The notes beneath the pieces are model-generated. The model saw only the letters and a list, made by a program, of their open reading frames with translations. It had not been told where the DNA came from and did no database searches. A DNA stretch of 63,922 nucleotides, counting the filler, from Acidimicrobiia bacterium (GTDB lineage Bacteria; Actinomycetota; Acidimicrobiia; Spongiisociales; CAZKJJ01), in NCBI GenBank assembly GCA_046759765.1. It is 9 parts of 9 records of this genome, joined end to end, with 100 filler letters (N's around TTAATTAATTAA, not from the genome) between each part and the next. Parts side by side here need not be neighbours in the genome. Positions count along the whole stretch, not along the records: positions 23,808 to 31,586 come from JBHICV010000121.1; 8 more parts are not named here. The stretch is one strand, 5' to 3'. Numbering within the stretch: position 1 is the first letter of the stretch; every line of letters begins with the position of its first letter. Made by a program: the position numbers and the translations under genes. Below, piece after piece: positions 4,757 to 61,136 of this stretch.

Positions 4757-6408
4757 CAGAACTCCGATCCCACTCGGTACCTGTCGATGATCAGAATCGC
4801 GGCTCCGGTCAGGATCACGAGAAAGGTGCTCATGGCCATTGCCTGGCCGAAATTGGCCGCACCTGGCTGGCTCAGAAGGCGGAAGATCGCAATCGGGAGA
4901 GTGGGGCTGTCGGGTCGGACAATGAATGACGTGGCGCCGAACTCGCCCAGCGACACGGCCAGCGCGAAGCCGGCGCCGACCGCGGCGGCCCGCCCGATGA
5001 GCGGCAGGTCAACCTCGCGCCACGCCTGAGCTGGAGAAGCGCCCAGCACCGCCGCCGCCTCTCGCAAGCGAGTCTGCACCGAGCGCATCACCGGAACGGC
5101 GGTTCTCACCACGAGCGGGATGGCGACTAGAGCGTGGGCGATCGGTATCAGCCAAGCCGACGCTCGCAGGTCTATCGGCTGGTCGAGGGCGATGAGGAAT
5201 CCAAAGCCGATTGTCACCGCGGACGTGCCCAGAGGGAGCATCAGGAACGTGTCGAATCCCCGGGAGAGACGGCCCTTTCGGTAGGCAACGACGGCTGCGG
5301 CCATGAGCCCAACCGTCACAGCCAACACGGTGGCGACGGTGCCAAAGGCCAAGCTGTTGCTAATTGCTTCAGTGGGGGTTACAAACAGCGCCGAGGCGCC
5401 ACCCTCGGCAAGAGATCCATAGTGATCGAGTCCCCAGCCGACTGGTGTCCGGAATGAGCGTCCCACCAAAACCGCGATCGGCGCGCCCAGCAGGACTGCC
5501 GTTCCTCCGAGCGTGGCCGCCACCAGGCCGCGTTCGGTAAGCGTCGTCGGCGCGCGCGCGGTCAGCCCGGGCGGCTTTAGCGGCTGCTCGATGGCCCTCC
5601 GTTGTTGATACCGGGCATAGGCAACGAGGATTCCGGCCACTCCCACGAGCTGAAGGACGGCCAGCGCGGCAGCCACATCGAGATTCAGGAATGAAGTCGT
5701 CTGTCGCCAGATCTCGACCTCCAGAGTGCGGAACTCGAGGCCACCCAAAATCAGGATCACGCCAAACGACGTGAAGGTGAAAAGGAACACAAGGGAAGAG
5801 GCTGCCGCGATGGCCGGCCGGAGCAAGGGGAGGGAAACCTCCTTGAAGGTCTGCCAGCGGCTCGCTCCCAACGCTCGAGCCGCTTCTTCGAGACGGGGAT
5901 CGAGCTGCTCCCACAACGTCCCGACGGTCCGGACAACGATGGCGTAGTTGTAGAAAACGTGGGCCGCCAAAATCGCCCAGATTGTTCGGCTCAGGTCGAC
6001 GCCGAGGGCACCGTTCGGACCGATCAACGCCAGGAAGGCCGTCCCCACTACCACGGTGGGAAGGACAAAGGGGATGGTGACCGCGGCCCGGAAGAGGCTG
6101 CGCCCCCGGAAGCGAAAGCGGGCGAATACGTAGGCGGCCGGAAGCCCGGCCAGAACCGTCAGCAGCGTGGAGACTGTCGCCTGCCAGATGGTGAAAAACG
6201 CCGTTCCGCGAAGCGTGGGCCGGGTCAGGACGTCACCGAAGGCCGACAGATCCAGGCTGCCGTCGGTGGTGAAGCTCGTCGTCAGGATCGATATCAGCGG
6301 GTAAAGGAAGAAATAGCCGAGGAAGACCGTAGGAACGACCGCGATCAGCGTCCGTCCCCCGCGTCCCACCGTCGGCTGCGCCCCTACGGCAACACCACGT
6401 CGGTCCAT
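4756..6408 (-). CDS. thiP: Thiamine ABC transporter permease
   Basis: Two EAA loops (LEEAARALGAS, LREAAAVLGAS), about 12 TM segments, lies between thiB and thiQ. Confidence 0.9.
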   Translation of the reverse strand: MDRRGVAVGAQPTVGRGGRTLIAVVPTVFLGYFFLYPLISILTTSFTTDGSLDLSAFGDVLTRPTLRGTAFFTIWQATVSTLLTVLAGLPAAYVFARFRFRGRSLFRAAVTIPFVLPTVVVGTAFLALIGPNGALGVDLSRTIWAILAAHVFYNYAIVVRTVGTLWEQLDPRLEEAARALGASRWQTFKEVSLPLLRPAIAAASSLVFLFTFTSFGVILILGGLEFRTLEVEIWRQTTSFLNLDVAAALAVLQLVGVAGILVAYARYQQRRAIEQPLKPPGLTARAPTTLTERGLVAATLGGTAVLLGAPIAVLVGRSFRTPVGWGLDHYGSLAEGGASALFVTPTEAISNSLAFGTVATVLAVTVGLMAAAVVAYRKGRLSRGFDTFLMLPLGTSAVTIGFGFLIALDQPIDLRASAWLIPIAHALVAIPLVVRTAVPVMRSVQTRLREAAAVLGASPAQAWREVDLPLIGRAAAVGAGFALAVSLGEFGATSFIVRPDSPTLPIAIFRLLSQPGAANFGQAMAMSTFLVILTGAAILIIDRYRVGSEF

Positions 6409-7529
6409 GCCTCGATCCAGATCTCGCGATTCTCATCGATCGTGTGGGGGTCGAGCGTCACCGGTTCCGAAGGGACCACGGTGTGCTGTACCCACTCCGC
6501 GGGCAATTTGGCCCGCTCATGGGCCGGGAACACGAACATGTTGAGGGGGATGTCCTCCTGGAACCTCAGAGTGAGGAGGAAGTCCATGAACAGCTCCGCT
6601 CCGGCCCTACGCTCCGTCCCGACGAGGATCCCGGCGAACTCGATCTGGCGGAAGCAGCCCGCCTCAATCACACCGGTAGGGGCCTCAGCCAGGGGGTCCT
6701 CGACCTCGAACGGCGGCGAGGATGCGTAGGAGACGACAAGGGGTCTGTCGCCGCCCCACTTGCTGAACGCCGTGAAGTATGCCTCTTCCCATCCGGAGGT
6801 AACGAGCACATCGTTCGCCTTCAGGTCTTGCCAGAAGTCGAGCCACGTATAGGTGCCGGTCTCTCCAAAGGTGCCGACAGTGGCCATCAGAAAGGCGAGC
6901 CCTGGAGAAGACGTGGCGGGGTTCTCGACTACCAAAAGGCCCTGGTACTCCGGGCGGGCCAGGTCCCGGAGCGCGGTCGGCACGGGAAGACCGATTTTGG
7001 CGAAGGCCGCTTTCTCGTAGTTGAGGCAGACGTCCCCGAAGTCGATCGGCGTGACCCGTCCCTCGGGATCGAGCTGCAGGGCTTCAGGCACGAACTCCAG
7101 TCCGACCGGACGGTACGGCTCGAAGATTCCCTCCTCGAGCGCTCGAGATACGAAGGTGTTATCCACTCCGAAGAGGACATCCGCCAGCGGGTTGTCCTTG
7201 GTCAGGATCGCCTGGTTGACCATCGTCCCTGCGTCCCCGCCCCTCAGGATGCTGACTTCGATGCCCGTTTCGACCGTGAACGTGTCGAGCACGTTCTCGG
7301 AGACCGCGAAGGAGTCGTGCGTGAGGAGAGTGAGTTCCGGGTCGACTACATCGGCGGGGCTCGTCGGCGGTGGTTCAGTGGTGCCGGGAGTTGCCGGTGA
7401 GTCAGTGGTGACGGGCGATGGCGTTGTAACCGGTGGTTCGGTCGTGGTGCTCTCACCCGCGCATGAAACTGCGATGAGGGCGACGAGGACTGCAACAAGG
7501 AGAGCTCTCCGGGACACACTGACTCCCAT
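6384..7529 (-). CDS. thiB: Thiamine ABC transporter substrate-binding lipoprotein
   Basis: Lipobox IAVSC, P/T-rich linker, THDSF, GDAG, NPATSSPGLAF, VSYASSP, CFRQIEFAG. Directly downstream of the TPP riboswitch. Confidence 0.94.
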   Translation of the reverse strand: MGVSVSRRALLVAVLVALIAVSCAGESTTTEPPVTTPSPVTTDSPATPGTTEPPPTSPADVVDPELTLLTHDSFAVSENVLDTFTVETGIEVSILRGGDAGTMVNQAILTKDNPLADVLFGVDNTFVSRALEEGIFEPYRPVGLEFVPEALQLDPEGRVTPIDFGDVCLNYEKAAFAKIGLPVPTALRDLARPEYQGLLVVENPATSSPGLAFLMATVGTFGETGTYTWLDFWQDLKANDVLVTSGWEEAYFTAFSKWGGDRPLVVSYASSPPFEVEDPLAEAPTGVIEAGCFRQIEFAGILVGTERRAGAELFMDFLLTLRFQEDIPLNMFVFPAHERAKLPAEWVQHTVVPSEPVTLDPHTIDENREIWIEAWTDVVLP

Positions 7530-7555
7530 CTCTCGTGGGGAGCCGGAGCGACGAG

Positions 7556-7646
7556 CCTCCCTACGCCGGCATTATCCGGAGCAGGTTCTGGCGGTCGGAG
7601 GCTTCGAGCCTCCCTCTCAGCCCGGTCTCACCGAGCTCCCGCGTAT
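7556..7646 (-). ncRNA. TPP (thi-box) riboswitch
   Basis: Reverse complement CGCGGGAGCTCGG...GGGCTGAGAGG...GACCG.CAGAACCTGCTCCGGATAATGCCGGCGTAGGGAG carries the CUGAGA, ACCUG, UAAUGCCGGCGUAGGGA core. Sits upstream of thiB. Confidence 0.96.
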
Positions 7647-7882: not shown

Positions 7883-7982
7883 NNNNNNNNNNNNNNNNNN
7901 NNNNNNNNNNNNNNNNNNNNNNNNNNTTAATTAATTAANNNNNNNNNNNNNNNNNNNNNNNNNNNNNNNNNNNNNNNNNNNN
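7883..7982. other. Artificial contig linker
   Basis: 44 N + TTAATTAATTAA (stops in all six frames) + 44 N. Confidence 0.99.
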
Positions 7983-15800: not shown

Positions 15801-15900
15801 NNNNNNNNNNNNNNNNNNNNNNNNNNNNNNNNNNNNNNNNNNNNTTAATTAATTAANNNNNNNNNNNNNNNNNNNNNNNNNNNNNNNNNNNNNNNNNNNN
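15801..15900. other. Artificial contig linker
   Basis: N44-TTAATTAATTAA-N44. Confidence 0.99.
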
Positions 15901-23707: not shown

Positions 23708-23807
23708 NNNNNNNNNNNNNNNNNNNNNNNNNNNNNNNNNNNNNNNNNNNNTTAATTAATTAANNNNNNNNNNNNNNNNNNNNNNNNNNNNNNNNNNNNN
23801 NNNNNNN
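23708..23807. other. Artificial contig linker
   Basis: N44-TTAATTAATTAA-N44. Confidence 0.99.
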
Positions 23808-24178
23808 CCCCAGCCGAACTCACCGTCGGTGACCACCGGCACAATCCGAGTCGCCTCCTTGTGGGCCAGCCAGTACTCCACTTCCCGGTTCACCCACGGC
23901 GAGGAGGCAGCCTCAGGTGACAACAACAACACAAACCAGTCCGAGCGGTCCAAGGCTTCAGTTATCGAAGACCACAGATGCGGATTGGCAGACAACGAGG
24001 CTTCATCCCGGAAGATCTTCAGCGCCCTCCGCTTCCACCAGGGCTTCGCGAACCGCTGCAACCCCGTCTGCAAACGGGGCGCCAGAAGATCATCCGCCCC
24101 ATGGCTATACGACATGAACCCGTCGTAGGCCGGCGCCTCCGGCTCCGGAACCGCAGTCCGAGCCTTCGCTGTATCCAC
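23808..24178 (-). CDS. TIR domain protein, N-terminal part (cut by contig end)
   Basis: YDGFMSYSH, IFRD, SDWFVLLLSPEAASSPWVNREV with the catalytic Glu retained. GTG overlaps the upstream TAG (TAGTG). Confidence 0.92.
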
Positions 24179-27033
24179 TACAGCCGTCGTCTCAACGCGA
24201 ACAGTGGCAACGACCCGTATCCCTTGGCAGTGGGCAGCGTCCCCACGTACTGGGTGTCGAACGACTGATCCCCCACCAGCACCGCGAGCGCTGCAAACGG
24301 ATAAGTCGTGTAGATCTCCCCTTCCGGGGTTCTGGGCTCGATCCGAGCCGTCTGTGTGACACCGGCGCCGAAGAACAAGCGGGTGCCGGAGATAGGGTCA
24401 CGGCCGTCGAACACCGGCGTGGCGTGTGCTGCCACCCGCATGCTTCTCAGCGTGGGCAGCCCCAGTTGGTCGAAGTCCATCTCGCGGATCGTGTCCTGAA
24501 TCGTGAGCGTGCAGGCGGCCGCGGCAGCGATGTCGTCGAACACCAGATAAAGGCTGTCGCCCCACGTTCGGCCTGAGAGAACATGCGGCTGGAAAGGCTC
24601 GATTGCCTTGGCCAATCCTCCCATCACGCGTTCTTGAAAGACGATCAGCTGCCCGTCGGACAGCGTGGAGAAACCGGCGAAGTCGCCAAAGACGATGCCC
24701 CTGATGTGGCGTACGGGCTCGACCGATTCTGTCGGTTGAGGGTCGGACGTAGGCTCGATCGATATGACCGTCGAGGTGCGCCCCGTGCCGTGCCAACGGG
24801 CGACATCGACCGCCGTCCCGGCGGTTCCACCGGTGGGAATTCCGTCCCACACCGCCACCTGGTGGGCCTCTGACTCCAGAGACCGCGCCCGCATCAGCGC
24901 ATCGCCCATCGCGATCTGAGAGCAGAAGTCGAACAGCACCGGATCGTCCAGGTACTCACCCGTGATGGCCGTCGTCACCCCTTCGGCCGCGCCCAGGCAA
25001 CGTTCGAATCGCGTAACCCAATCGGCCCCGGCGGGCGCTACGGAAGTGCGAACGAACTCGTCCCGGTCGAAGGGGAGCACGACTCGGAGCTCGGCGCCTC
25101 TTTCAGCCAGGGCCTCCGCGGCGAGGATGTCGGCCCCGGCTGCCAAGGAGCCAAACCCGAACCCGACTCTGAGCCGATCAAATGCCTCCTTGAGCTCGGC
25201 GGCCACTCTGGGTTCCTGATCAGGTGGGAATCTCCCATTCTCCCCCGGTGCGAGCACCCGATGGCCACAGAAGTGAACAACTGCCGCATTGGCTATCGGA
25301 GCGAGGATTGACGGGTCGATGTCCAGAAGCCCGCACACCATCTTTAGCTGGTGGAGAGTCGTCGCCCGGGAGGCGTGGTTACCTTCGCTGACCTCCCCCG
25401 CCCGAGTCAGCGCCTCGGCGGCCCGATCCATCTCACCGAGAGCTATCGCCGCCTCTGCCTCGGAGGCCGCCTCCCAATACCGATCGTCCTCACCGAGCTG
25501 GTCCCAATCAACCAGGGCGTTGAGTGCGTCTCGAGCTGCTTTTTGAGCTCTCTCGCGATCCTCGGCGACCAGCCACATGGTGGCCGCGTTGGCAGCGAGG
25601 TAAGCGGATGGGAAGCGGGCAAATGCCGACTCGTATCCCTCGGCCGAACGCCGCGCCCACCCTGGCCCTTCGCCGCCCGGGCGGCTGAGCGCCATATCCT
25701 TGTCGAGACCGGGAGCTAGCGCGGCGATGTCCTCGGCCAAGCGTGGCGACACCGCGCTTGGGTCCACGGAAGCCAAACCAAGGCCTTCATACCTGCGCCG
25801 GGCGTGTTCCGTAGCTCTCGACCTTTTGAGCGCCAGGACCGCGAGATATCGAATCTCAGGATCAACAACACCGCTTTCGAGCATCGAAGTCGCCTGGTCG
25901 TAGGCCTCCAGGTTCTGAACGTCCCTGATCAGCTCACGAATCGCCTCTGCTGGCACTGCGTCAGCGGCATCTTTCGCTCGCTCAGCACCAAGACGGGAGC
26001 GGAAACTATCGGCCGTGTGGACTGAAACTGTTGTCGCCGTGGCCGCTCGGACCGAGGCAGTTCGGCCCGTGCCGAGCAGCGATGCCAGTTCGCCGAAGTA
26101 GCGGCCGGGCCCCAGCTCAGCAAGGACCACCGTCTGCCCGTCGGAGGTGGTCTTGGTCACCTCAACCTGGCCGGTCTCGATCCAATAGACAGAGTCGGCG
26201 GGCGCTCCCTCGGAAACGATGACTTCTCCGGTCGTGAAGTTGAGCAGCTCGGGCTCCTCTGTCCACTCTCGAGCAGCCGGTTCGCGCAGGTCTTCGAGCG
26301 CCGGGTCATGAAGAAGGATTCGTTCCTCTAGGTCCACCAGCTCCCGTTCCGGCTCAATGCCAAGGTCCTCGCCTAGGAGGGCCTTGACCCGGGTGAAGGT
26401 GCGAAGCGCTTCGGCCTGGCGCCCTGAGCGATAGAGGGCAAGCATGAGGTGCGCCCAGAGTCTCTCTCGATAAGGGAACGATTCCACCAGCCCGCTCAGC
26501 TCCCCAATAACCAGCTCGTGGTTGCCAGCCGCCAACTCGGCTTCCATCAACCTCTCTACGACTCCGAGGCGTTCTTCCTCCAGCTGCCGGGCCGCCTGTT
26601 CGGCAAACTCGAACTTTCGTAAGTCCGATAGTGGGTCACCGTGCCACTGAGCGAGAGCGTGGCGGAATCCCTCCGCCGCCTTGGCCGGGTGGCCGAGCGT
26701 GAGAAGCTGGCGGCCCCTCTGTGTGTGTCGGCGAAAGCGCTCGATGTCACAGTTGGCGACCGGGATCCCAAGCCGGTATCCGCCTGCCATAGTCTCGACC
26801 GAGTCCTCTCCAATGGCACTCCGCAGTCGAGATACCGCGACATGCAGCGCCGATTCAGGGTTCTGAACCGGCTCGTCTCCCCATAGCGCTTCGATGATGC
26901 GATCGACCGAGATGGCTTCAGGAGCGTGAAGGGCGAGGAGTGCAAGGAGGGCACGGGGTCGCGTGCCGGGGACGCTGACTTCGAGATCGGCAGCGTCAAC
27001 GACCTCGAGCGGCCCCAGCAACCGAACGTCCAC
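24178..27033 (-). CDS. Multidomain protein: SARP wHTH + BTAD + cNMP-binding + TPR-like + SLOG-like + class III nucleotide cyclase
   Basis: VRLLGPLEV, PYRERLWAHLMLALYRSGRQAEAL (BTAD); FGELA..RTASV (cNMP); YLAANAATM, DDRYWEAASEAEA (TPR-like); FCGH, GSLAAGADIL, VVLPF (SLOG-like); FGDFAGFS, TWGDS, TARIEP, GEIY (cyclase). Start uncertain: GTG at 27033, ORF open to 27120. Confidence 0.88.
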   Translation of the reverse strand: MDVRLLGPLEVVDAADLEVSVPGTRPRALLALLALHAPEAISVDRIIEALWGDEPVQNPESALHVAVSRLRSAIGEDSVETMAGGYRLGIPVANCDIERFRRHTQRGRQLLTLGHPAKAAEGFRHALAQWHGDPLSDLRKFEFAEQAARQLEEERLGVVERLMEAELAAGNHELVIGELSGLVESFPYRERLWAHLMLALYRSGRQAEALRTFTRVKALLGEDLGIEPERELVDLEERILLHDPALEDLREPAAREWTEEPELLNFTTGEVIVSEGAPADSVYWIETGQVEVTKTTSDGQTVVLAELGPGRYFGELASLLGTGRTASVRAATATTVSVHTADSFRSRLGAERAKDAADAVPAEAIRELIRDVQNLEAYDQATSMLESGVVDPEIRYLAVLALKRSRATEHARRRYEGLGLASVDPSAVSPRLAEDIAALAPGLDKDMALSRPGGEGPGWARRSAEGYESAFARFPSAYLAANAATMWLVAEDRERAQKAARDALNALVDWDQLGEDDRYWEAASEAEAAIALGEMDRAAEALTRAGEVSEGNHASRATTLHQLKMVCGLLDIDPSILAPIANAAVVHFCGHRVLAPGENGRFPPDQEPRVAAELKEAFDRLRVGFGFGSLAAGADILAAEALAERGAELRVVLPFDRDEFVRTSVAPAGADWVTRFERCLGAAEGVTTAITGEYLDDPVLFDFCSQIAMGDALMRARSLESEAHQVAVWDGIPTGGTAGTAVDVARWHGTGRTSTVISIEPTSDPQPTESVEPVRHIRGIVFGDFAGFSTLSDGQLIVFQERVMGGLAKAIEPFQPHVLSGRTWGDSLYLVFDDIAAAAACTLTIQDTIREMDFDQLGLPTLRSMRVAAHATPVFDGRDPISGTRLFFGAGVTQTARIEPRTPEGEIYTTYPFAALAVLVGDQSFDTQYVGTLPTAKGYGSLPLFALRRRL

Positions 27034-27259
27034 TACTGCGAGGACTCTACTGAGGTCGCCTGAGTCGGTTCCCGACGCGGCGTCAGATGTAAGTGCCAAG
27101 CGCTTCTGACTCACCTCCAACTGGAGTCTGCCTAAGGCTCCTTACGAGCCGCTTTCGACCCGTTCCTGTCAATCGACGCGTCGCTTTTCGACGCGTGCAT
27201 TGCCACGAAACCGAACTTCGTAAGACATCAGAAAGAGCAAGTCCCTAAGTTCCCTGGAT

Positions 27260-28048
27260 GTGGAAAGTGTTCCTGGGAGACGAATCGTTCTCGCTGGACT
27301 GTTAACCCTCCTAGTAGCTGTCCTAGCGACGGGAGCCTTCCTGACAGCGCGTGGCTTAGCCGGCCAGGCGGGTCGAGCACCCACACCCCCGGAGCTCACA
27401 AAGGAGTCGCAGGCTCTTGTTCTGCAGGCGGAGGGTCCCATCCATGAAGGGCTTCTGGCCAACTATCTGGTAAGCACCGACTCTCCACCGAGCGGACTGC
27501 TTACTCGGGAACAAGAGGAGCTGGTCCGTTGGGCCTTATGGAGGTTCTCCGCCGCAGGGCTCGAGCTACCAGAGGTAGACATCTTCTTCCAGAACGACAC
27601 AATGAGCTGCGGGGGCCGACAGGGGCTTTATCACACCGAGACGGCCACTCTCTATCTATGCACGCCACGTAAGCAGACCATCCTCCATGAGCTGGCTCAC
27701 GCCTGGACGGAAGCGCAGCTGTCAGAAGAGCGCCGTACGGGATTCGTGGAGTTCAGAGGAGTAAGGAGCTGGGACAGCCGAAGTGACCCCTGGGAGCTCC
27801 GCGCAACCGAACATGCTTCCGAGATCATCACCTGGGCCCTGATGGACCGACCGATCCACGTCCCAACCCAGCCCGCGGGACCGGGTGGAGAAACGATCTT
27901 TCAGCTGTTGTCCATCCCGAAGAGCGATGTCGACGCGCTCGCACTGGGCTATGAGTTCCTAACCGGAACTCTCCCGCCCTTTCGCCATGCCTCGGAGTGG
28001 GAGGAAATCCTCCAGATAGGAAACCCGGAGCTGCGCTACGCCCGGTGA
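27260..28048 (+). CDS. Secreted/membrane-anchored HExxH zincin-like protein
   Basis: N-terminal hydrophobic segment; ILHELAHAW and downstream EHASE; divergent from the SARP-cyclase gene. Confidence 0.7.
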   Translation: MESVPGRRIVLAGLLTLLVAVLATGAFLTARGLAGQAGRAPTPPELTKESQALVLQAEGPIHEGLLANYLVSTDSPPSGLLTREQEELVRWALWRFSAAGLELPEVDIFFQNDTMSCGGRQGLYHTETATLYLCTPRKQTILHELAHAWTEAQLSEERRTGFVEFRGVRSWDSRSDPWELRATEHASEIITWALMDRPIHVPTQPAGPGGETIFQLLSIPKSDVDALALGYEFLTGTLPPFRHASEWEEILQIGNPELRYAR

Positions 28049-28112
28049 ATCTGTTTCCGTGACGTCTACTCGTCGGTACGACTAAGAGTCGTCACAAGAA
28101 TGAAGGCGCTTG

Positions 28113-28721
28113 TCAATCGCCCCAGTACCGCTCTTCAGTCCACGGATCGCCGCGCATGTGATAGCCGTTTCGCTCCCAGAATCCGGGCTCGTCCTCGCTG
28201 AGCACCGTGAAGCCTCGCACCCACTTGACCGACTTCCAGAAGTAGAGGTGCGGTACGACCAGTCGTAGCGGCCACCCATGGTCCGGCGTCAGCTCGCCAC
28301 CGCGGAAGCCCCAGGCAAAGAGATTCTCCGGCTGGGCGAAGTCTTCGAGCGGGAGGTTGGCAGTGAAGCCGTGCTCGGCGTTCACGAGAACATACTCGGC
28401 TCCCGGCAGCAGCTCGATGTGGTCGAGCACTGTCTCCGTCGGCACGCCCTCGAATTCCGCATCGAACAGGGACCACTTGGTGACGCAGTGGACGTCTGCG
28501 ACGCGGGTCTCTGCACCCAGAGCGCGAAACTCGTCATAGGTCCAGCTCTTCCGCTCCGCCACGAGGCCATCGACTGTGAAATCCCACGTAGCCAGGTCTA
28601 CTTCGGGAACGACGCCGGCGTGAAGAACCGGCCACCGCTCTGTGTGGTATTGACCCGGTGGAAGCCGAGCGGGATCGATCCCCAAGGCGGCGAGCTCTTC
28701 TCGTTTACGGTCGAATGTCAT
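28113..28721 (-). CDS. Sulfite oxidase-like molybdopterin oxidoreductase (YuiH/MsrP-like)
   Basis: RLPPGQ, DVHCVTKWS, HGWPLRLVVPHLYFWKSVKW, GFWERNGYH. Confidence 0.93.
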   Translation of the reverse strand: MTFDRKREELAALGIDPARLPPGQYHTERWPVLHAGVVPEVDLATWDFTVDGLVAERKSWTYDEFRALGAETRVADVHCVTKWSLFDAEFEGVPTETVLDHIELLPGAEYVLVNAEHGFTANLPLEDFAQPENLFAWGFRGGELTPDHGWPLRLVVPHLYFWKSVKWVRGFTVLSEDEPGFWERNGYHMRGDPWTEERYWGD

Positions 28722-28761
28722 GCCATCCCGGCCTAGCTAGCAACCGGCGGTACGCTACCTC

Positions 28762-29412
28762 GTGAAACCCGGCATGACCGAGACCGAAACCGTTCCCACC
28801 GAGCCCGAAGCCCTACCGCCCCGCGGCGGCCGCCTGGCGTTGATCTTCGTAGCAGTGATCGTCGTGGGAGCAGGAATCGGGTTTGCCGTACGATCCGCCT
28901 TCCGGAATGCAGAGGAGCTCAGGCAGCCGCCGACACTTGACCAATCGCTGAGTGCCTTCCCGCCAGGACCCAACGCAGGGCAGCCGGCACCTGACTTCAC
29001 GCTCGAGCTCTTCGACCTGTCGACCTTTACGCTGTCGGAACATCTTGCTAACGACGGCCGACCCGTCTTGCTCTACTTCTGGTTCCCTTCCTGTCCCCCA
29101 TGCAGGGCTGAGATGCCGGAAATCAACCGAGTCGCCGACACAACCCCCGGCGTCATCTTCGTCGGCGTAGGTCTTCCCGTGATCGATACTCGTGAGCAGG
29201 CAGCCGCCTTTGCGGAGGAAATGAACGTCAAATACCCGATCGGGTGGGACGAAACGGAGTCAATCGCCGCTGCGTACGGCGTCGCCCGACTTCCACAAAC
29301 ATGGGTGATCGGCTCCGATGGAAGGATCGTTCGCACGTACATAGGTGCCGTCACCGAACAGTGGCTGCGCGGGCTGATCTGGGACGATCTCGGAGTCGTC
29401 TCCGAAGCGTAG
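28762..29412 (+). CDS. TlpA/ResA-like membrane-anchored thiol-disulfide oxidoreductase
   Basis: N-terminal TM, GQPAPDFTL, CPPCRAEMP, cis-Pro LPQT. Confidence 0.9.
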   Translation: MKPGMTETETVPTEPEALPPRGGRLALIFVAVIVVGAGIGFAVRSAFRNAEELRQPPTLDQSLSAFPPGPNAGQPAPDFTLELFDLSTFTLSEHLANDGRPVLLYFWFPSCPPCRAEMPEINRVADTTPGVIFVGVGLPVIDTREQAAAFAEEMNVKYPIGWDETESIAAAYGVARLPQTWVIGSDGRIVRTYIGAVTEQWLRGLIWDDLGVVSEA

Positions 29413-29421
29413 GAGAGCGGC

Positions 29422-30567
29422 TCAGGCTCCAGTCCCCCGGAATCCCCACAGACCGACGACCCTGCCATCGACACCGAATTCGGAGAAGTTGCCGGTGGCC
29501 ACGTTCAACGCCATCACGTACGAGCTCCCCATCATCTCGCTGGGCATGAGCACGAACCCATCAAACGTCCAATCCATCGGCGCCGCGAGCGGTCGACTCT
29601 GCTCGGCAGCTCCGAGCTCCCATGAGCGCTCAGCGGGTTCCCCAACCGGCGCGATCCGAAGGAAGGTTCCATCCGCGCTGCGCTCGAGATATGCCACTCT
29701 GTCGCCGTCGGGTGAAAAGGCCACTCCACGGGGAACGAACCCGGCCGGAGTGAGGTCTTCCAAGTTGGGATCGGTAAGAACGAACTCGTCACCGGCGTAC
29801 AACAACAGGGCTCCGGATGGCCCGGCGGCGGCGAATTCGTGCAGGGTTGATCCGAGAACCCCACCCTGTTCATCGAGCGTCACGAGCCCATCTGGCCCCT
29901 GGAGTAGGTACCAGCCTTCCCCGAAGGCCCGTACGAATGTCCCGTCGGGAACCTCTGTGACTTCTCGAGTGTCTGCATCGGGCCGGGAGGTGCCGGTCGG
30001 ATTCCGTACGACGCCTGGGGACGCAGATACCAATACCGTCCGACCATCACCCTGCTTCTGCGTCCAGGCCATCCCCGACGGATCCACCAAATGCCATGCA
30101 AACGACGTGATTCCCTCCTGGTAGGGCTCGAGGGGAAACGGGGTCTGAATGCTGCCCAGGTGCAGAAAAGAACTAGCCCCGGAGGTGCTCCGGGCCGCGG
30201 CCCAGACCCGCGTCGAGTTCAGATCGAGCGAGTTGAACAGCTCGGCTCCCATGACTATGCGCTCGGGCTTGGTGGCGTAGGGACCCCAGACCGCTAGCTC
30301 TAGGTTCCCCCCGCTCATCAAAAGAGCCGCCAGGAGTCCCTGGTATCCGGGAATCAGGATTCGATCACGCTCCTCACCGCCACTTGCTGCCTCGTTGGCC
30401 GTCAGCTCCTCATTAGTTAGCGGGGGACTCGGGGCGACGCCCGTATTGGCGCCTAACAGGTAACCGAGGGCCACGCCGCCGATCACCAAGGCCAGCACCA
30501 ACAGCCACGGAAGACGGGGCTTCTCGGGCTCGGGCGGCTGATCCGGCCCGACGGTCACCTCATTCAC
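29422..30567 (-). CDS. Membrane-anchored hypothetical protein, probable beta-propeller (TolB-like)
   Basis: Single N-terminal TM; AFSPDGDRVAY blade-like motif. Confidence 0.65.
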   Translation of the reverse strand: MNEVTVGPDQPPEPEKPRLPWLLVLALVIGGVALGYLLGANTGVAPSPPLTNEELTANEAASGGEERDRILIPGYQGLLAALLMSGGNLELAVWGPYATKPERIVMGAELFNSLDLNSTRVWAAARSTSGASSFLHLGSIQTPFPLEPYQEGITSFAWHLVDPSGMAWTQKQGDGRTVLVSASPGVVRNPTGTSRPDADTREVTEVPDGTFVRAFGEGWYLLQGPDGLVTLDEQGGVLGSTLHEFAAAGPSGALLLYAGDEFVLTDPNLEDLTPAGFVPRGVAFSPDGDRVAYLERSADGTFLRIAPVGEPAERSWELGAAEQSRPLAAPMDWTFDGFVLMPSEMMGSSYVMALNVATGNFSEFGVDGRVVGLWGFRGTGA

Positions 30568-30622
30568 AGCGCTTCCCGGGATGGGCCCCTCAGGCTAAGG
30601 GGGGTCCTCGCTATAAGCGGCC

Positions 30623-30766
30623 CTAAGGCCCGACAACGCCTCCAGTGTCGATTATTCCTCCGGCGGTTTCGAACAGCAGCACGAGGCCGAGCAGCGCCAC
30701 AAAGGTGATAACCAGATAAAGGAGCCAACGAAATACGCGTGGGATGGAATCGAGGAAGCTACGCAT
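30623..30766 (-). CDS. Small single-TM protein (47 aa)
   Basis: TAATG overlap with the sortase stop; MRSFLDSIPRVFRWLLYLVITFVALLGLVLLFETAGGIIDTGGVVGP. Confidence 0.6.
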   Translation of the reverse strand: MRSFLDSIPRVFRWLLYLVITFVALLGLVLLFETAGGIIDTGGVVGP

Positions 30767-31479
30767 TAGACCTCGGGATTCTCGTCGACCTGCTGCTGTG
30801 CCTGGATGAAGTCGTAGTTGGGTCCCTCGACCAACTCGGCAACCACGATCAGCCGCTGCCTCGCTGAGAACCTCGGATTGCAGGTCGTCAGCGTGAGCCA
30901 CGAGCCCGGGCGAAACTCGGTGACCCAAACGTCGGAGGGCGCCACGATGAGGGTCTCACGCACCTGGAACGTGTGCTGTCCCCGCAATGTCTCCACAGTG
31001 ATCAGATCGCCCAGGCTTACCTGATCCAGGTCGAAGAACGGAGCCCCATAAGTGGTTCGGTGGCCGCTGATCACCGCGTTCCCCGGCTGGCCGGGCAACG
31101 GCGTCCAGGGCATATGTCCCGGTCCCGCCTTCAGGGTGGAACGGTCAACGCCTTCCATAAGAACATGATCAACGCCGATTCCGCCGATGGTTAGCCGTCC
31201 TACCGGCTCACCGACGTCGGGCGCCTCCTCGGGATAGAGCGAGGGCAACGTGACCATCGGCTGATCCGGAGCCGAACCGATCGTGGGGTCGTCCTGCTCG
31301 AACGGAATCGGCTCCGCCAGGTCCGAAGCCGCGGCCAGCCGAGCCTCAAAGGCGGCCTCGGCATTGCTCTGCGCGCGCGCGGTGATGAAGTTTGTGCCGA
31401 CCAGCTGATAGGCCAGGAAGGCGACAATAAGGGTGCCGCTCCAGACCATGGTCCAGCCAAGGATCCTCAAAGCCCGCAT
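30766..31479 (-). CDS. Class E sortase
   Basis: N-terminal TM, GPGH..TPLPGQPGN.VISGHRTTYGAPF, LTLTTCNPRFSARQR (His/Cys/Arg triad). Confidence 0.93.
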   Translation of the reverse strand: MRALRILGWTMVWSGTLIVAFLAYQLVGTNFITARAQSNAEAAFEARLAAASDLAEPIPFEQDDPTIGSAPDQPMVTLPSLYPEEAPDVGEPVGRLTIGGIGVDHVLMEGVDRSTLKAGPGHMPWTPLPGQPGNAVISGHRTTYGAPFFDLDQVSLGDLITVETLRGQHTFQVRETLIVAPSDVWVTEFRPGSWLTLTTCNPRFSARQRLIVVAELVEGPNYDFIQAQQQVDENPEV

Positions 31480-31586
31480 TTGCCCGCTGCCAGGCTAACG
31501 GTATCTAGCCATCACGGAAAGTGGCAAAGCCAACACTCTCTGTCAAACTTCCGACAAAGGGCTAACGCCGAGCTCAGGCCCATTTG

Positions 31587-31686
31587 NNNNNNNNNNNNNN
31601 NNNNNNNNNNNNNNNNNNNNNNNNNNNNNNTTAATTAATTAANNNNNNNNNNNNNNNNNNNNNNNNNNNNNNNNNNNNNNNNNNNN
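31587..31686. other. Artificial contig linker
   Basis: N44-TTAATTAATTAA-N44. Confidence 0.99.
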
Positions 31687-56969: not shown

Positions 56970-59900
56970 TCAGGACCCTCCGACGGTCAGTTCGGTGGCG
57001 GGGACGAAATTATCGACCGGGAAGCCAGTCGGCAGGCAGCTGACGTCGTGAGTACCGGTGTCCAGCACCGCGTACCAGGGCGCCTCGTCGTTGCCTTGCG
57101 CGTGCACAAAGCCCGAGAGATACTCACCGTCCACGTTGAAAGTACCTGCGCCTGCGAGCTGTGACGAGGTATTGACAAAGTCGAATTGGACCACCGTGCC
57201 ATCCGCGAAGCTGCTAGCTCCGTCGTAGTGGCACGTGACTCCATCCCACGTCACCGTGGCAACTGCGGAAACATCAGCGACGTCGATGAAGAACGGCGAA
57301 GGAGGCGGCTCGTCCGGCACCTGCGGAACCACGATGTCCCCGGAGATGATCTGGCTCTTGTAACCATTCACGACTTCGATGGTACGCGGAGCGAGGTGGC
57401 CTCCCTCGGTTGAGAAATCGACCCCTTCGTCAGCGAGGTTCAACAACCGGATGCCGGGTGTGAAGCCGTCTTCGACAAAGTCCTTGATGACCTCGTAAAG
57501 GGCGGTGTCATACCGCTTGATCATCGAAGTCAGGATGTAGGGCTTGAGATGATCGGGTTGAAGTAGGTACTCGTCCGCATCGACGCCGATCGCCCATTGC
57601 CCGTGGTCGCTGGCTGCCTCCACGACCCCGAGTCCGGAGAAACCCGCGGCGTGAAACACCACACCCGCCCCCTGTTCGAAGAGTTCGCTTGCTGCCGCGC
57701 GACCGCGCTCGGGGGATGTGAAGCCATCGAACCAGTACGAGAGGTAAGCCGTGCGGACCTCGATTTCCGGATCGACTTCTCTCGCCCCGGCTATGTACCC
57801 GGCTCGGAATGCCTCGATCTGGGCAAACGCCGACATCCCACCGACGAAGCCGATGGTGCCGGTCTGCGACTCGAGCGCGGCGGCTGCTCCCACGAGATAG
57901 GAGCCCTCCTCTACGGCGAAGACGACGGAGGCCACATTTGGCTGGACGATCGGGGCGTCGATAACCACGTACTTCGCATCCGGAAACTCAGGCGCGATGC
58001 TCTCCACGTTGAACTGAAAGTCGAGGCCGGTGACGATCAGATCGGCGCCCCCGTCGGACAGGTCGCGCAAGACACCCTCCGGGTCCGCCAGCACCGGTTC
58101 CTCTACGGGATCGAACGCAAAATCGCGCGTCGCCCTGTCGATTCCGATGGCCATAAGATCGTCGATCGGGCCCCTTCCCCGATCGATCCCCACGATGGCT
58201 ACGGTGGGCCGGAGGGCTCCTACCAACAGCACTCCCCCGATGACCGCCAGCGCCACGACCGCGGCCACGGCCGCCCAGAGGCCGCGTCGGGCCCGCCGTC
58301 GCAGCCGAATCTCCTGCGCGTCTCTAGCTTCCTCGGCCTCTCGCTCAGCCTCCCGTCGCTCGAGCGCCGCCTCGAGGTACTCACGCTCGGTTTCGGTGAG
58401 CCTCAGCGCCGTTTCGTCACGCCATTGCTGGTATTGATCGAGTCGGGCTCCGGTCAACAGGTAGTCAGGATCTCGGTCCGCGGCAAGCCACTCGTCGACC
58501 GCGACGGCGTAGGTCGCATGTCGGCGGAGGTCCTCCCGGCTCTGATCGATCCACTCCCGCAGTCGTTCCCACTCCCGCAGGAGCGCCTCGTGGGCCACCT
58601 CCACCGTTGGAGCTCCGGAGGCCTGGTCACGGTCGAACGTCAAGAGCCGGTGCTCCCCAAAGATAGCGATGGCCGCCTGCATCGCCACCTTGTCCACCTC
58701 CAGGGCGGTGATCTCGGACGCCAGGACCCTTCGCCGGCTGTCCTCGGCCTCTTCCGTGACCGCCACGAGCCTGAGCAAAAGCTGCCGGGCAGCTTCCTGC
58801 TCTTCCGGTTCGAGCTGGTGGTAGAGCTCATCGGCTCGCCTGGTCAAGGAGCCGCGCAGGCCGCCGATCGTCCGATAAGTCGAGATCGTCAGCGTGTCAC
58901 CCTCGCGCCGGTCGAAGAGATCCGCCAGGGTGTATTGGAACAGGGGGAGCGCCCCGGGCTCATCGGCGACGTCGGTGATGAGCTCGGCGAGCAAGGCGGA
59001 CTCCAGGGACACACCACTCTTCCGGGCCGGTTGCACTGCGGCAGCTTCCAGCTCCTCTGCGGAGAGTGGCATCACGTTGATCACATTCGACGTGAGCAGC
59101 TCTCCGAACTCCGGATAGAGCAACGGTCGTCCATAGAAATCGGCACGCAGCGTTAGGACGACGTCGATGCGGCCCCGCGGGTCCTCGACTGCGGTGGCGA
59201 GGTTGGTGAGAAACCGCCGCCGCTCGTGTTCATCCTCGACGAGGGTGAAGAGCTCCTCGAATTGGTCGATCACCAGCACCACGTGGGAATCTTCTGAGGG
59301 AAGAACCCGCAACGCCGCTCGCAGTAGGCCAGTCGTCTCTTGTTGGAGCTGGTCGCTCAGACTCTGAGGAGGATCGAGGGTGGAACGGAGAAGCGCGGCC
59401 TCCAGCTCGGCGAAGGGATGGGCGCCGGGCAGCATTTGGGCGACCAGCCACAGGTCCGATCCGGGAAGAGCCGCCTTGCGGAGCTCTGGAAGCAGACCTG
59501 CTCGGACGACGCTCGATTTGCCGGAGCCGCTCGGTCCGATCAGAGCCAAGAGCCGATCCTGGCCTGAGAGCTTCTCAAGCAACGCGGCCACCAGGCGCTC
59601 TCGCCCGAAGAAGTCCTCGGCGTCGTCTTCTCGGAAGGGGCGCAACCCCTTGTACGGGTTGGGAGGTCCGACGGCCAGACTCAGCGCTCCCTCTTCCACC
59701 TCGGTGGGCCGGAGCTCCGGAAAGTCTGAGAGAAGGCCTTCGATCACGAGCTGAAAGACCCGCTCGGGTTCGGGAATGCCCTTGAACGTGTATTCGCCGA
59801 GGTCGATCAGTTCCGCGGAGGAGCCGGATTCGCTCACCTCGGTCTGAGCCATAGAGGACAGCAGGACCTGTCCGCCGTGGCCCGCGGCCACCATGCGTGC

Positions 59901-61010
59901 CGCCCGGTTCAGCGCCGGACCGAAGTAGTCGGTGCCTCGTCGACGGGTTTCACCCACATAGATCGCCATCCTTGCCCGGAGCTCTCCCAGATGTCCCCAG
60001 TCCTCGGCGGCTAAACGCCGCTGAGCCGACTCGGCGGCCGAGACGGCCGACGACGGATCAGGCAGGTTGGCGAGAAGACCATCGCCGGTCCCCTTGAAGA
60101 CAGCCCCTCCGGCCTCCATGACGGCCGTCCGGATGATCTCGTCGTGCCGTTCCAGGGCCGGAGCCATGGCATCCGCATCGAGCTCCCAGAGAGCCGTGCT
60201 GCCTTCGAGGTCGGTGATCAGGATGGTCGCCTCCACGACCTCCTCGAGGTCCAGCTCGAGTGTCGGATCCTGAAGCAGGATCCGCTCCTCGAGGCGACGC
60301 AACTCAGCGGACGGCTCGATCCCGAGCTCGGAGGCGAGAGTGCTTCGCGACCGGTCGTACGCTCGGAGGGCGTCAGCGTGGCGGCCTGACCGGTACAAAG
60401 CAACCATCAGCTGGGAAACCAGGCGTTCCCGCGTCGGGTGCTCCCCGGATAAGGACTCGAGCTCGCTGACCAGCTCCTCGGACTGTCCTCGCTTCAAGTC
60501 GGCTTCGATCCGGTATTCGACCGCCCCCAAACGCAGCTCTTCGAGTCGGGCGATCTCGGACTGTGTAAACGACTCGCGGGCGAAGTCCTCAAATGCGGAG
60601 CCTCGCCACAACTCCAAGGCTTTCAGGAGTGTTCCCGATGCCGCGTCGGGATCTCTGTCGACCAGTTCCCTGCCTTCCGTGGTCATCTGCTCGAACCGGA
60701 ACGCGTCGATCTCCTCCGGATTGATCGACAGGAGATACCCGGACTCCCTCGTGAGCAGAATCGTGCTTTCGGCTTGTTCGGTGCGATCCGGCTCCAGCGC
60801 GGTCCGAAGGCGGGAGACGTGCGCGAACAGCGTGTCCCGCTTGCCTTCGGCTCCTTCTCCCCATAGCTCTTCGAGGACCCGTTCAGTGGATACGACCTGG
60901 TTGGCATGGATGAGCAAGAGGGCCAACAGTGCCCTCTGCTTTAGCGGTCCGAGATCGATCGAGCGGCCCTCGGCCGAGACCTCAAGTGGCCCGAGAACGC
61001 GAAAATCCAA
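56970..61010 (-). CDS. SARP wHTH + BTAD + class III cyclase + nSTAND1 NTPase + TM + BMP-family ligand-binding domain
   Basis: FRVLGPLEV; PTRERL...LM.ALYRSGR; TDLEGST, GTGDG, NRAAR; NPYKGL, GPSGSGKSS, IDQFEELF, LRADF; TM GLWAAVAAVVALAVIGGVLLVGAL; BMP EEGSYLVG, GFVGG, IGVDAD, LTSMIKR. TTG at 61010 follows GAGGG. Confidence 0.9.
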   Translation of the reverse strand: MDFRVLGPLEVSAEGRSIDLGPLKQRALLALLLIHANQVVSTERVLEELWGEGAEGKRDTLFAHVSRLRTALEPDRTEQAESTILLTRESGYLLSINPEEIDAFRFEQMTTEGRELVDRDPDAASGTLLKALELWRGSAFEDFARESFTQSEIARLEELRLGAVEYRIEADLKRGQSEELVSELESLSGEHPTRERLVSQLMVALYRSGRHADALRAYDRSRSTLASELGIEPSAELRRLEERILLQDPTLELDLEEVVEATILITDLEGSTALWELDADAMAPALERHDEIIRTAVMEAGGAVFKGTGDGLLANLPDPSSAVSAAESAQRRLAAEDWGHLGELRARMAIYVGETRRRGTDYFGPALNRAARMVAAGHGGQVLLSSMAQTEVSESGSSAELIDLGEYTFKGIPEPERVFQLVIEGLLSDFPELRPTEVEEGALSLAVGPPNPYKGLRPFREDDAEDFFGRERLVAALLEKLSGQDRLLALIGPSGSGKSSVVRAGLLPELRKAALPGSDLWLVAQMLPGAHPFAELEAALLRSTLDPPQSLSDQLQQETTGLLRAALRVLPSEDSHVVLVIDQFEELFTLVEDEHERRRFLTNLATAVEDPRGRIDVVLTLRADFYGRPLLYPEFGELLTSNVINVMPLSAEELEAAAVQPARKSGVSLESALLAELITDVADEPGALPLFQYTLADLFDRREGDTLTISTYRTIGGLRGSLTRRADELYHQLEPEEQEAARQLLLRLVAVTEEAEDSRRRVLASEITALEVDKVAMQAAIAIFGEHRLLTFDRDQASGAPTVEVAHEALLREWERLREWIDQSREDLRRHATYAVAVDEWLAADRDPDYLLTGARLDQYQQWRDETALRLTETEREYLEAALERREAEREAEEARDAQEIRLRRRARRGLWAAVAAVVALAVIGGVLLVGALRPTVAIVGIDRGRGPIDDLMAIGIDRATRDFAFDPVEEPVLADPEGVLRDLSDGGADLIVTGLDFQFNVESIAPEFPDAKYVVIDAPIVQPNVASVVFAVEEGSYLVGAAAALESQTGTIGFVGGMSAFAQIEAFRAGYIAGAREVDPEIEVRTAYLSYWFDGFTSPERGRAAASELFEQGAGVVFHAAGFSGLGVVEAASDHGQWAIGVDADEYLLQPDHLKPYILTSMIKRYDTALYEVIKDFVEDGFTPGIRLLNLADEGVDFSTEGGHLAPRTIEVVNGYKSQIISGDIVVPQVPDEPPPSPFFIDVADVSAVATVTWDGVTCHYDGASSFADGTVVQFDFVNTSSQLAGAGTFNVDGEYLSGFVHAQGNDEAPWYAVLDTGTHDVSCLPTGFPVDNFVPATELTVGGS

Positions 61011-61136
61011 CTGGCGACCCTCTGTAGCCTCGCGCAAGGCTAGGAGCTACACGACCCCGCCGACTCCGAAATAGGTCCGCAGCGACTGCGTGACTCAGTG
61101 GTTCCTTCCCGTCGACAAATGCGCTGGCTGAGCGGT

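Follow-up and report, generated by a model that had tools for sequence, protein, structure and literature searches.

A single gene in the 63,922-nt window of Acidimicrobiia DNA analysed here encodes a polypeptide with six parts: a winged-helix DNA-binding domain (wHTH), a BTAD, a cyclic nucleoside monophosphate (cNMP)-binding domain, a TPR-S region, a YpsA-like SLOG domain and a divergent class III nucleotide cyclase. A TIR gene begins where this regulator gene ends. In related loci the cyclase is linked to TIR genes and to cNMP-binding domains, and a common two-repeat promoter box lies in front of regulator and TIR genes. We propose that a signal made by the TIR protein is sensed by the TPR-S/SLOG part, relayed as a cyclic nucleotide, read in cis by the same protein and turned into transcription of both the TIR genes and the regulator gene; we give this reading an even chance of being right.

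The window is composed of nine separate contigs of ~7.8 kb each, chained by linkers of the form N44-TTAATTAATTAA-N44. These are contigs C118-C124, C126 and C294 of a 2.73-Mb assembly in 308 contigs, C125 being skipped. Genes across any joint (7883-7982, 15801-15900, 23708-23807, 31587-31686 and others) are not neighbours; contiguous DNA around the regulator comprises positions 23808-31586 only (contig C121), and anything further left belongs to another contig. The features of this region are as follows.

27125..27158, minus strand: candidate SARP-dependent promoter, with direct repeats DR1 (27158-27148) and DR2 (27147-27137), a 6-nt spacer and the hexamer CAGACT (27130-27125)
24178..27120, minus strand: gene for the 980-codon SARP-cNMP-TPR-S-SLOG-cyclase protein, TTG start at 27120, stop TAG at 24180-24178
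26773..26955, minus strand: winged-helix DNA-binding domain Trans_reg_C, residues 56-116 (Pfam, E 6e-9)
26314..26751, minus strand: BTAD, residues 124-269 (Pfam, E 2.5e-44), which together with the wHTH makes up the SARP module
25996..26241, minus strand: cNMP-binding domain, residues 294-375 (Pfam PF00027, E 3.2e-21), with an FGE...RTA cassette
25321..25920, minus strand: TPR-S helical-repeat region, residues ~401-600, outer limits approximate and taken from alignments
24754..25290, minus strand: Rossmannoid domain with a YpsA-type SLOG fold, residues ~611-789, from the predicted structure
24181..24711, minus strand: divergent class III nucleotide cyclase domain, residues ~804-980, from the match of the family profile to PDB cyclases
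23808..24178, minus strand: 5′ part of the TIR gene (122 codons), its GTG overlapping the upstream stop, cut by the contig end
23708..23807, no strand: artificial contig joint (N44 + TTAATTAATTAA + N44), non-biological sequence

Domains of the regulator and its family

An alternative start of the regulator gene, GTG at 27114, would give 978 codons, and a database protein of 978 aa (P0003), identical to the regulator, is the window's own product. The initial annotation of this locus had recognised one large polypeptide, and the single open reading frame (ORF) bears this out; the start that it had chosen, 27033, lies ~29 codons inside the 980-codon ORF. The domains it had named are all recovered, including the intact FGE..RT cassette, the FCGH and GSLAAGADIL motifs of the SLOG-like domain and the two metal-binding Asp residues of the cyclase.

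The four N-terminal parts are assigned by direct matches: Trans_reg_C, BTAD, cNMP_binding and TPR-S all score above their Pfam cut-offs. With an OmpR-type winged helix followed by a BTAD, the N-terminus is that of a SARP family protein. The NCBIfam models for AfsR and BagI/FevR match it partially (E ~5e-41), far under their full-length cut-offs, and NCBIfam otherwise gave only partial SARP and cNMP matches, again far under cut-off. The phosphate-binding cassette FGELASLLGTGRTA is present in the translation and conserved in alignment A1 (24 rows). The Pfam TPR-S match proper (PF20308) covers residues 407-515, that is positions 25576-25902, with an E-value of 7.7e-8 and 33.3 bits against a cut-off of 27.6, and the same model matches all 26 relatives that we compared. 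PF13281 (MAP3K_TRAF_bd) also matches the TPR-S region, in 20 of the 26 (best E 1.7e-8), a likeness to the central regulatory TPR of ASK1/MAP3K5 that holds at the Pfam level only; the family profile found no PDB sequence match to ASK1 at E≤10.

Residues 520-980 matched no Pfam family at E≤10 and no PDB sequence by direct search. Direct searches being empty, this half was assigned with a profile built from the 26 relatives and with a predicted structure. The middle domain, predicted with a pLDDT of 95, has YpsA (2nx2) as its best structural match, and on this model it is a SLOG-type Rossmannoid domain of the YpsA kind. It differs from the curated SLOG families in that no Pfam SLOG-family model matches it at E≤10, nor did the single sequence or the profile find a PDB sequence match for this region. 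Residues G662 and D664 are invariant in alignment A1 and conserved in at least 90% of the 127 rows of alignment A4. The pattern G662-x-D664 recalls the GxD/E signature given for the YpsA clade in the accessible text of PMC6459960, a likeness of pattern rather than of residues placed by alignment.

For the C-terminal domain the 26-relative profile matches solved class III cyclases with E-values from 1.1e-8 to 1e-4 (3et6, 1.1e-8; 3mr7, 3.3e-8), and PF00211 matches 22 of the 26 relatives at E≤0.1. Class III cyclases carry two metal-binding Asp residues, a transition-state Asn and Arg and a pair of residues that specify the base. In the present domain we take D813 and D855 to be the metal-binding pair, R926 the transition-state Arg, Thr922 to stand at the Asn position and R851 and L915 to be the base-specifying positions. 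Among the 127 diverse family members of A4, D855 is found in every row and D813 and R926 in at least 90%, and the ARIEP..TPEG segment of the domain is nearly invariant. We regard the domain as an atypical cyclase whose catalytic activity is predicted from domain homology.

The architecture is that of a real family, as a search suggested with the initial annotation made clear. BTAD and cNMP_binding are both present in 95 of the 120 best-listed matches to residues 520-980, and those with a source name are labelled as Acidimicrobiia metagenome-assembled genomes (MAGs). The ~600-aa TPR-S-SLOG-cyclase core is far more widespread, with 4355 cluster representatives at E≤1e-3 and 1249 at E≤1e-30. The short forms of the family lack the fused SARP and cNMP-binding domains. 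In a FastTree tree of 63 rows, from which 80 of 120 additional short-form rows were left out, all 17 sampled long forms group together in one clade with an SH-like support of 100, which branches from among the short forms. It also takes in two short rows, P0015 and P0025; this fits one fusion event followed, for these two, by later loss, a split or a mis-called start. The SLOG-cyclase occurs in only six of 151 sampled genomes of the class, so the regulator is an accessory gene.

Locus counts below refer to 63 contigs that carry relatives (L-numbers). Four of them (L004, L030, L032 and L058) come from bins labelled Kiloniellales, Proteobacteria, Burkholderiales or Acidobacteria, likely through mis-binning; the remaining ones are from Acidimicrobiia or other Actinomycetota, L017 being labelled only 'bacterium'.

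TIR genes and cNMP-binding proteins linked to the cyclase

The stop codon of the regulator gene (TAG, 24180-24178) and the GTG of the TIR gene (24178-24176) have one base in common, in the sequence TAGTG, an overlap that suggests translational coupling of the two genes. Paralogs on contigs C125 and C286 begin with sequences that align with the N-terminus of the TIR protein and, for this reason, the GTG is likely to be the true start. The fragment matches TIR_2 (E 2.3e-11) and reaches 29.5 bits with ThsB_TIR, whose cut-off is 21.2, and the WVNRE motif reported earlier is present in the translation. The gene ends at 23808 because the contig was joined artificially at this point, and its C-terminus is indeed missing, as the initial annotation had it. 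This part was not assigned among the contigs of the same genome, where C288, with part of a propeller, and C286, with the tail of a propeller in front of another TIR gene, are no more than candidates. C125, which lies outside the window, carries a complete TIR-WD40 paralog.

The relatives of this gene confirm the earlier suspicion that the TIR partner is a WD40 fusion. A tblastn search of the 63 loci with the TIR fragment found copies at 50-81% identity, often two or three of them ~3 kb apart, and the partner ORFs encode TIR + WD40 β-propeller proteins of ~990-1025 aa. When TIR domains were counted with our own hidden Markov model, iterated three times, 43 of the 63 loci had one; the match in L059 is weak and unchecked, while those in L008, L030 and L038 were confirmed by Pfam. 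In 16 of the 63 the TIR domain starts no more than 300 nt downstream on the same strand, and the gap between cyclase and TIR gene is 2 nt in L018, L019, L021 and L022. In L025 (5821-10467, plus strand) a single ORF of 1548 aa contains TPR-S, SLOG, cyclase, TIR and WD40 propellers; this single case may be a natural fusion of the system's two genes or may reflect an assembly error that removed a stop codon.

The two families also tend to be found in the same genomes. The TIR family is present in seven of the 151 genomes of the class and accompanies the SLOG-cyclase in five (adjacent in G114 and G124); we give no p-value for this co-occurrence because related genomes are not independent. Where a long-form locus has no adjacent TIR, 2-5 TIR paralogs are encoded elsewhere in four of five such genomes, and the window's own genome has four copies of the family. 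The paralogs are 68-74% identical over their first ~290 residues and 28-38% identical in their propellers, and TIR domains are 70-80% identical across genera. S93, W95, V96, E99 and W103 are invariant in all 52 family TIR domains; among them is the Glu of the SxWVxxE motif, E99, which we take to be catalytic by its likeness to the SxWCxxE motif.

A cNMP-binding domain accompanies the cyclase in 42 of the 63 loci. In 21 of them it is fused and in 21 others a neighbouring gene encodes it; for the short forms, such a neighbour supplies the receiver. The typical neighbour is an ORF of ~215-260 aa, convergent with the cyclase gene and abutting it. Those checked with Pfam are Crp-type regulators (L033, L045, L057), an ABC ATPase with a cNMP domain (L028) and a 337-aa cNMP protein (L032); in L043 a gene for a cNMP-binding domain and a patatin phospholipase (5908-7617, plus strand) lies directly upstream of the short-form gene and is the sole neighbour that resembles a killing effector. 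Of the indirect arguments that the cyclase makes a cNMP that is read locally, usually with transcription as the output, this persistent pairing is the strongest. We also searched the surroundings of short-form loci with Crp-type neighbours for the E. coli-type CRP palindrome, and rejected it for lack of a usable signal: it had 15 hits in 712 kb, of which only one or two (L057, L042) lie between a crp-like and a TIR gene.

A candidate SARP promoter box

Upstream of the long-form genes only one element can be aligned, two 11-bp direct repeats followed after 6 nt by a CAnnnT hexamer. In the window it sits just upstream of the TTG/GTG start of the regulator. Of 18 regions upstream of regulator genes, 14 contain the two-repeat pattern, which lies between -80 and -123 relative to a conserved codon; the pattern had been derived from these same orthologous regions. 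The same loose pattern has 40 hits in 1.42 Mb on both strands. As far as the accessible text of PMC10936776 goes, the afs box of AfsR is 22 bp long, consists of two 11-bp repeats and lies at -40 to -19 beside a weak -10 element, CACTGT. The candidate box has this geometry, with its two 11-bp direct repeats and a -10-like hexamer.

A position weight matrix (PWM) trained solely on the 14 regulator-upstream sites was used with a hit threshold of ≥10. It found 23 further hits in the 63 loci; ten precede a same-strand TIR domain by no more than 250 nt, a region that makes up 1.05% of the search space, and three precede other regulator genes. Long-type loci hold 21 of these 23 hits, and in short-type loci none of 31 TIR domains is preceded on its own strand by a hit at ≤250 nt. 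When all positions of the window's own genome are ranked, the sites lying 60-62 nt in front of the TIR genes of C286 and C125 take places 5 and 8. For TIR genes unlinked to the regulator in other genomes, a hit was present 58-155 nt upstream in four of eight. The candidate box marks the TIR genes and the regulator itself as likely transcriptional targets, and by analogy with AfsR it is the regulator's own SARP domain that we would expect to bind it.

Two further sites deserve mention. At L018 11988 (plus strand), in front of a second TIR gene, the box and ~60 nt after it are near-identical to the region upstream of the regulator of the same locus, and this copy looks like a duplicated promoter segment. 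The second-best PWM match of the whole genome, at C32 ~3869 (plus strand), lies ~150 nt upstream of a gene for a 154-aa sigma-70 region 4 (ECF-type) protein, which is followed by a 493-aa ORF without a Pfam family; it is possibly an extra target or a chance hit and was left uncounted. Other high-scoring hits in this genome, inside a methyltransferase gene on C1 and upstream of an integrase on C214, were also not counted as targets. A scan of 23808-27500 for sigma-70 promoters and terminators gave no sites, and Rfam gave no matches at E≤1. Further upstream of the box, 27163-27209 contains TTGACA without mismatch, an imperfect inverted repeat of 21 nt and a second pair of TCGA-containing repeats ~32-33 nt away; these elements could belong to a second promoter or serve as additional binding sites.

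The window holds another giant SARP protein, of 1355 aa (56970-61037, minus strand), with Trans_reg_C and BTAD at its N-terminus, a weak cyclase-like stretch (PF00211, E 5.6e-5) and an nSTAND1 NTPase (E 1.3e-117). It ends in a Bmp/PnrA-like substrate-binding domain and may be another ligand-sensing SARP.

A possible relay and its alternatives

The relay that we propose would start with a TIR + β-propeller protein recognising a trigger through its variable propellers. Its TIR domain, with a catalytic-type Glu, would make an NAD-derived small molecule, and the TPR-S/SLOG part of the regulator would bind this molecule and turn on the C-terminal cyclase, probably as a dimer. The cyclic nucleotide produced would bind the cNMP-binding domain of the same protein family, and the SARP, freed or activated in this way, would bind the two-repeat box overlapping the -35 region and activate its own operon as well as the TIR + β-propeller genes, giving a self-amplifying loop. 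The domain content, the conserved linkage of cyclase, TIR and cNMP-binding genes and the common promoter box are observed; all of the biochemistry in this scheme, the direction of the signal, the choice of TPR-S or SLOG as the receiver, the nature of both messengers and the biological role are inferred from them. The initial annotation had already suggested a circuit of this kind; its link to the TIR gene is supported by adjacency, co-occurrence, the L025 fusion, the cNMP linkage and the promoter box, while the interpretation as a whole is only partly supported. Conflict or defence is most likely the biological role, though not established. That the locus encodes a two-messenger, immune-like cascade with transcriptional amplification, in which variable TIR + β-propeller receptors, a TPR-S/SLOG-gated cyclase and a positive-feedback regulon, with the SARP inducing all the TIR receptor genes and itself, stand in place of a direct killing effector, is a more speculative extension which we consider possible but rather doubtful. 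If true, its logic would be closer to the TIR-triggered transcriptional reprogramming of plants than to any characterised Thoeris type.

The receiver role given to the SLOG and TPR-S parts comes from the analogy with Thoeris types I and VIII. Type I combines the TIR protein ThsB with ThsA, a SIR2-SLOG protein, and type VIII a TIR with ThsI, a CMP-hydrolase-TPR protein. According to the accessible part of a recent preprint, the SLOG senses 3′cADPR in type I and the TPR of the effector ThsI is proposed to perceive cADPR in type VIII, so that a TIR-made, ADP-ribose (ADPR)-derived signal would be perceived by the SLOG in one and presumably by the TPR in the other (bioRxiv 10.64898/2025.12.03.692087). 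Equating the TPR of ThsI with TPR-S is an assumption, suggested by a remark in the preprint that a role of this TPR in TIR signalling had been predicted by the Aravind group. As in Thoeris, a TIR with a catalytic-type Glu, one that passes the ThsB_TIR cut-off, is paired here with a protein bearing SLOG and TPR. Unlike in Thoeris, this putative receiver has a cyclase, a cNMP-binding domain and a SARP rather than a SIR2, transmembrane (TM), Macro, SLATT or hydrolase killing effector, and its TIR partners are ~1000-aa WD40 fusions present as several paralogs. The pairing of a class III-type cyclase with a cNMP-binding receiver is shared with Pycsar; there the cNMP-binding receiver carries a TIR or TM killing effector, whereas here the cNMP domain is fused to a transcription activator, the SARP, and the cyclase to TPR-S and SLOG. 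The PADLOC models for PycTIR and the Pycsar effector match the cNMP-binding domain only (residues 280-374, E 1.9e-7), and one relative weakly matches PycC (E 5e-4). With AfsR the regulator has in common the N-terminal wHTH and BTAD and a large C-terminal regulatory part; this part consists of cNMP-binding domain, TPR-S, SLOG and cyclase and not of NOD and TPR, the NCBIfam AfsR score is 140.8 bits against a cut-off of 1430, and it comes from an Acidimicrobiia MAG in which no antibiotic gene cluster is apparent.

Several observations weigh against the relay, and some of them suit other explanations. A TIR is not obligatory: the check for TIR adjacency and co-occurrence proposed earlier gave the positive counts above but also 20 of 63 loci with no TIR, several of them short contigs, and L002, the closest relative with common upstream genes, has no TIR downstream. 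G153, a complete 1.7-Mb chromosome with a long form, and G048, with a short-form gene, have no TIR of this family. The genome of the window encodes at least six BTAD proteins, so that elimination does not single out this SARP as the one that binds the box. SLOG domains can be enzymes rather than sensors, according to the accessible text of PMC6459960, and the cyclase is atypical in the ways set out below. Regulators without any TIR, as in G153 and G048, would be expected if the TIR + β-propeller proteins were downstream targets or effectors only and the input to TPR-S/SLOG came from elsewhere, be it NAD+/ADPR status, a nucleotide derived from phage or stress, or some other metabolite. The cyclase and the cNMP-binding domain would in that case act through the SARP to induce the TIR proteins, which would consume NAD+. 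The promoter box, which marks the TIR genes as likely outputs, agrees with such a role; moreover, in the same text of PMC6459960 YpsA-clade SLOGs are tied to NAD/ADP-ribose, and TIR proteins can act as NAD+-depleting effectors according to the part of PMC12162218 available. The tight operon and the L025 fusion, however, would better fit partners acting on the same small molecule, large variable propellers are typical of sensors, and the Thoeris types described in the preprint, as far as its accessible part goes, have the TIR as signal maker and SLOG or TPR as receiver (bioRxiv 10.64898/2025.12.03.692087). We judge a pure output role of the TIR proteins unlikely.

The setting of the gene also counts against a defence function. 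The regulator is surrounded by housekeeping-type genes and not by a defence island, and contig C121 has no mobile-element genes. Both an output in transcription and 70-80% conservation of TIR domains across genera are unusual for defence genes. A check with PADLOC, as recommended with the initial annotation, gave single-domain matches only for the regulator and the TIR (2023 version) and no defence system, and its Thoeris effector models did not match the regulator. These observations could also mean an ordinary physiological pathway of Acidimicrobiia, for example redox/NAD or nutrient sensing, with the TIRs as metabolic or signalling enzymes. The output through transcription factors (SARP here, Crp-type in the short-form loci checked) would suit this explanation, as would a tie of YpsA to oxidative stress and cell division in the accessible text of PMC6459960. 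Genes for an AhpC/TSA-type redoxin and a molybdopterin-oxidoreductase-domain protein lie upstream of the regulator both in the window (28113-29412) and in L002 (3790-5100); they point the same way, although this common pair is probably plain synteny. Such a pathway is harder to reconcile with the patchy spread of the SLOG-cyclase in the class, the expansion of the TIR genes to 2-5 paralogs per genome with divergent propellers, the cNMP + patatin neighbour in one locus and the recurrence of TIR, SLOG and TPR-S in predicted or proven conflict systems, and we find it improbable. The cyclase-like domain might, finally, be dead and serve as a dimerisation or nucleotide-binding module only, the cNMP domain reading the product of other cyclases. 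The window protein itself has no PF00211 match at E≤10, Thr922 replaces the usual transition-state Asn and the base-specifying positions R851 and L915 are variable in the family alignments. In L013 (2476-3780), L018 (1411-5371) and L021 (1-2435) the long-form gene has separate canonical class III cyclases as neighbours at a distance of no more than 6 kb, one of them fused to NB-ARC/AAA and TPR and one to a double zinc ribbon and AAA_16, and inactive cNMP cyclase domains are known in other conflict systems, as the accessible text of PMC7159879 states. We nevertheless consider a dead domain very unlikely, given the metal-binding Asp and the Arg kept across the 127 family members, the near-invariant ARIEP..TPEG segment and the pairing with a cNMP-binding protein in two thirds of the loci.

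The component theme of this system is already known from comparative work; the two-repeat promoter box before regulator and TIR genes is new. YpsA-family SLOG domains occur in nucleotide-centred conflict systems, and the legend of Figure 1 in the same source, of which we cite the accessible text, lists adenylyl/guanylyl cyclase among the contexts of the family (PMC6459960). TIR-Tpr and YpsA-Tpr assemblies are mentioned, after Burroughs and Aravind 2020, in the available part of 10.1101/2023.05.26.542521. The statement in the initial annotation that no characterised system has this fusion agrees with our searches of published full texts, the comparative surveys NAR 2015 and J Bacteriol 2020 not being covered, which found no description of the SARP-cNMP-TPR-S-SLOG-cyclase architecture.

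In the characterised bacterial TIR systems described in the accessible parts of the cited work, the molecule made by the TIR acts directly on an effector that arrests growth or kills. The present locus suggests a different wiring, in which the presumed receiver is fused to a messenger synthase, a messenger receptor and a transcription activator. With one regulator, one 22-bp box and one TIR domain, it offers compact parts for experiments. If the proposed relay is true, two nucleotide messengers can act in series in bacteria, gene regulation can be the end point of a TIR pathway, and a very large uncharacterised family of TPR-S-SLOG-cyclase proteins, with thousands of clusters, would gain a testable function.

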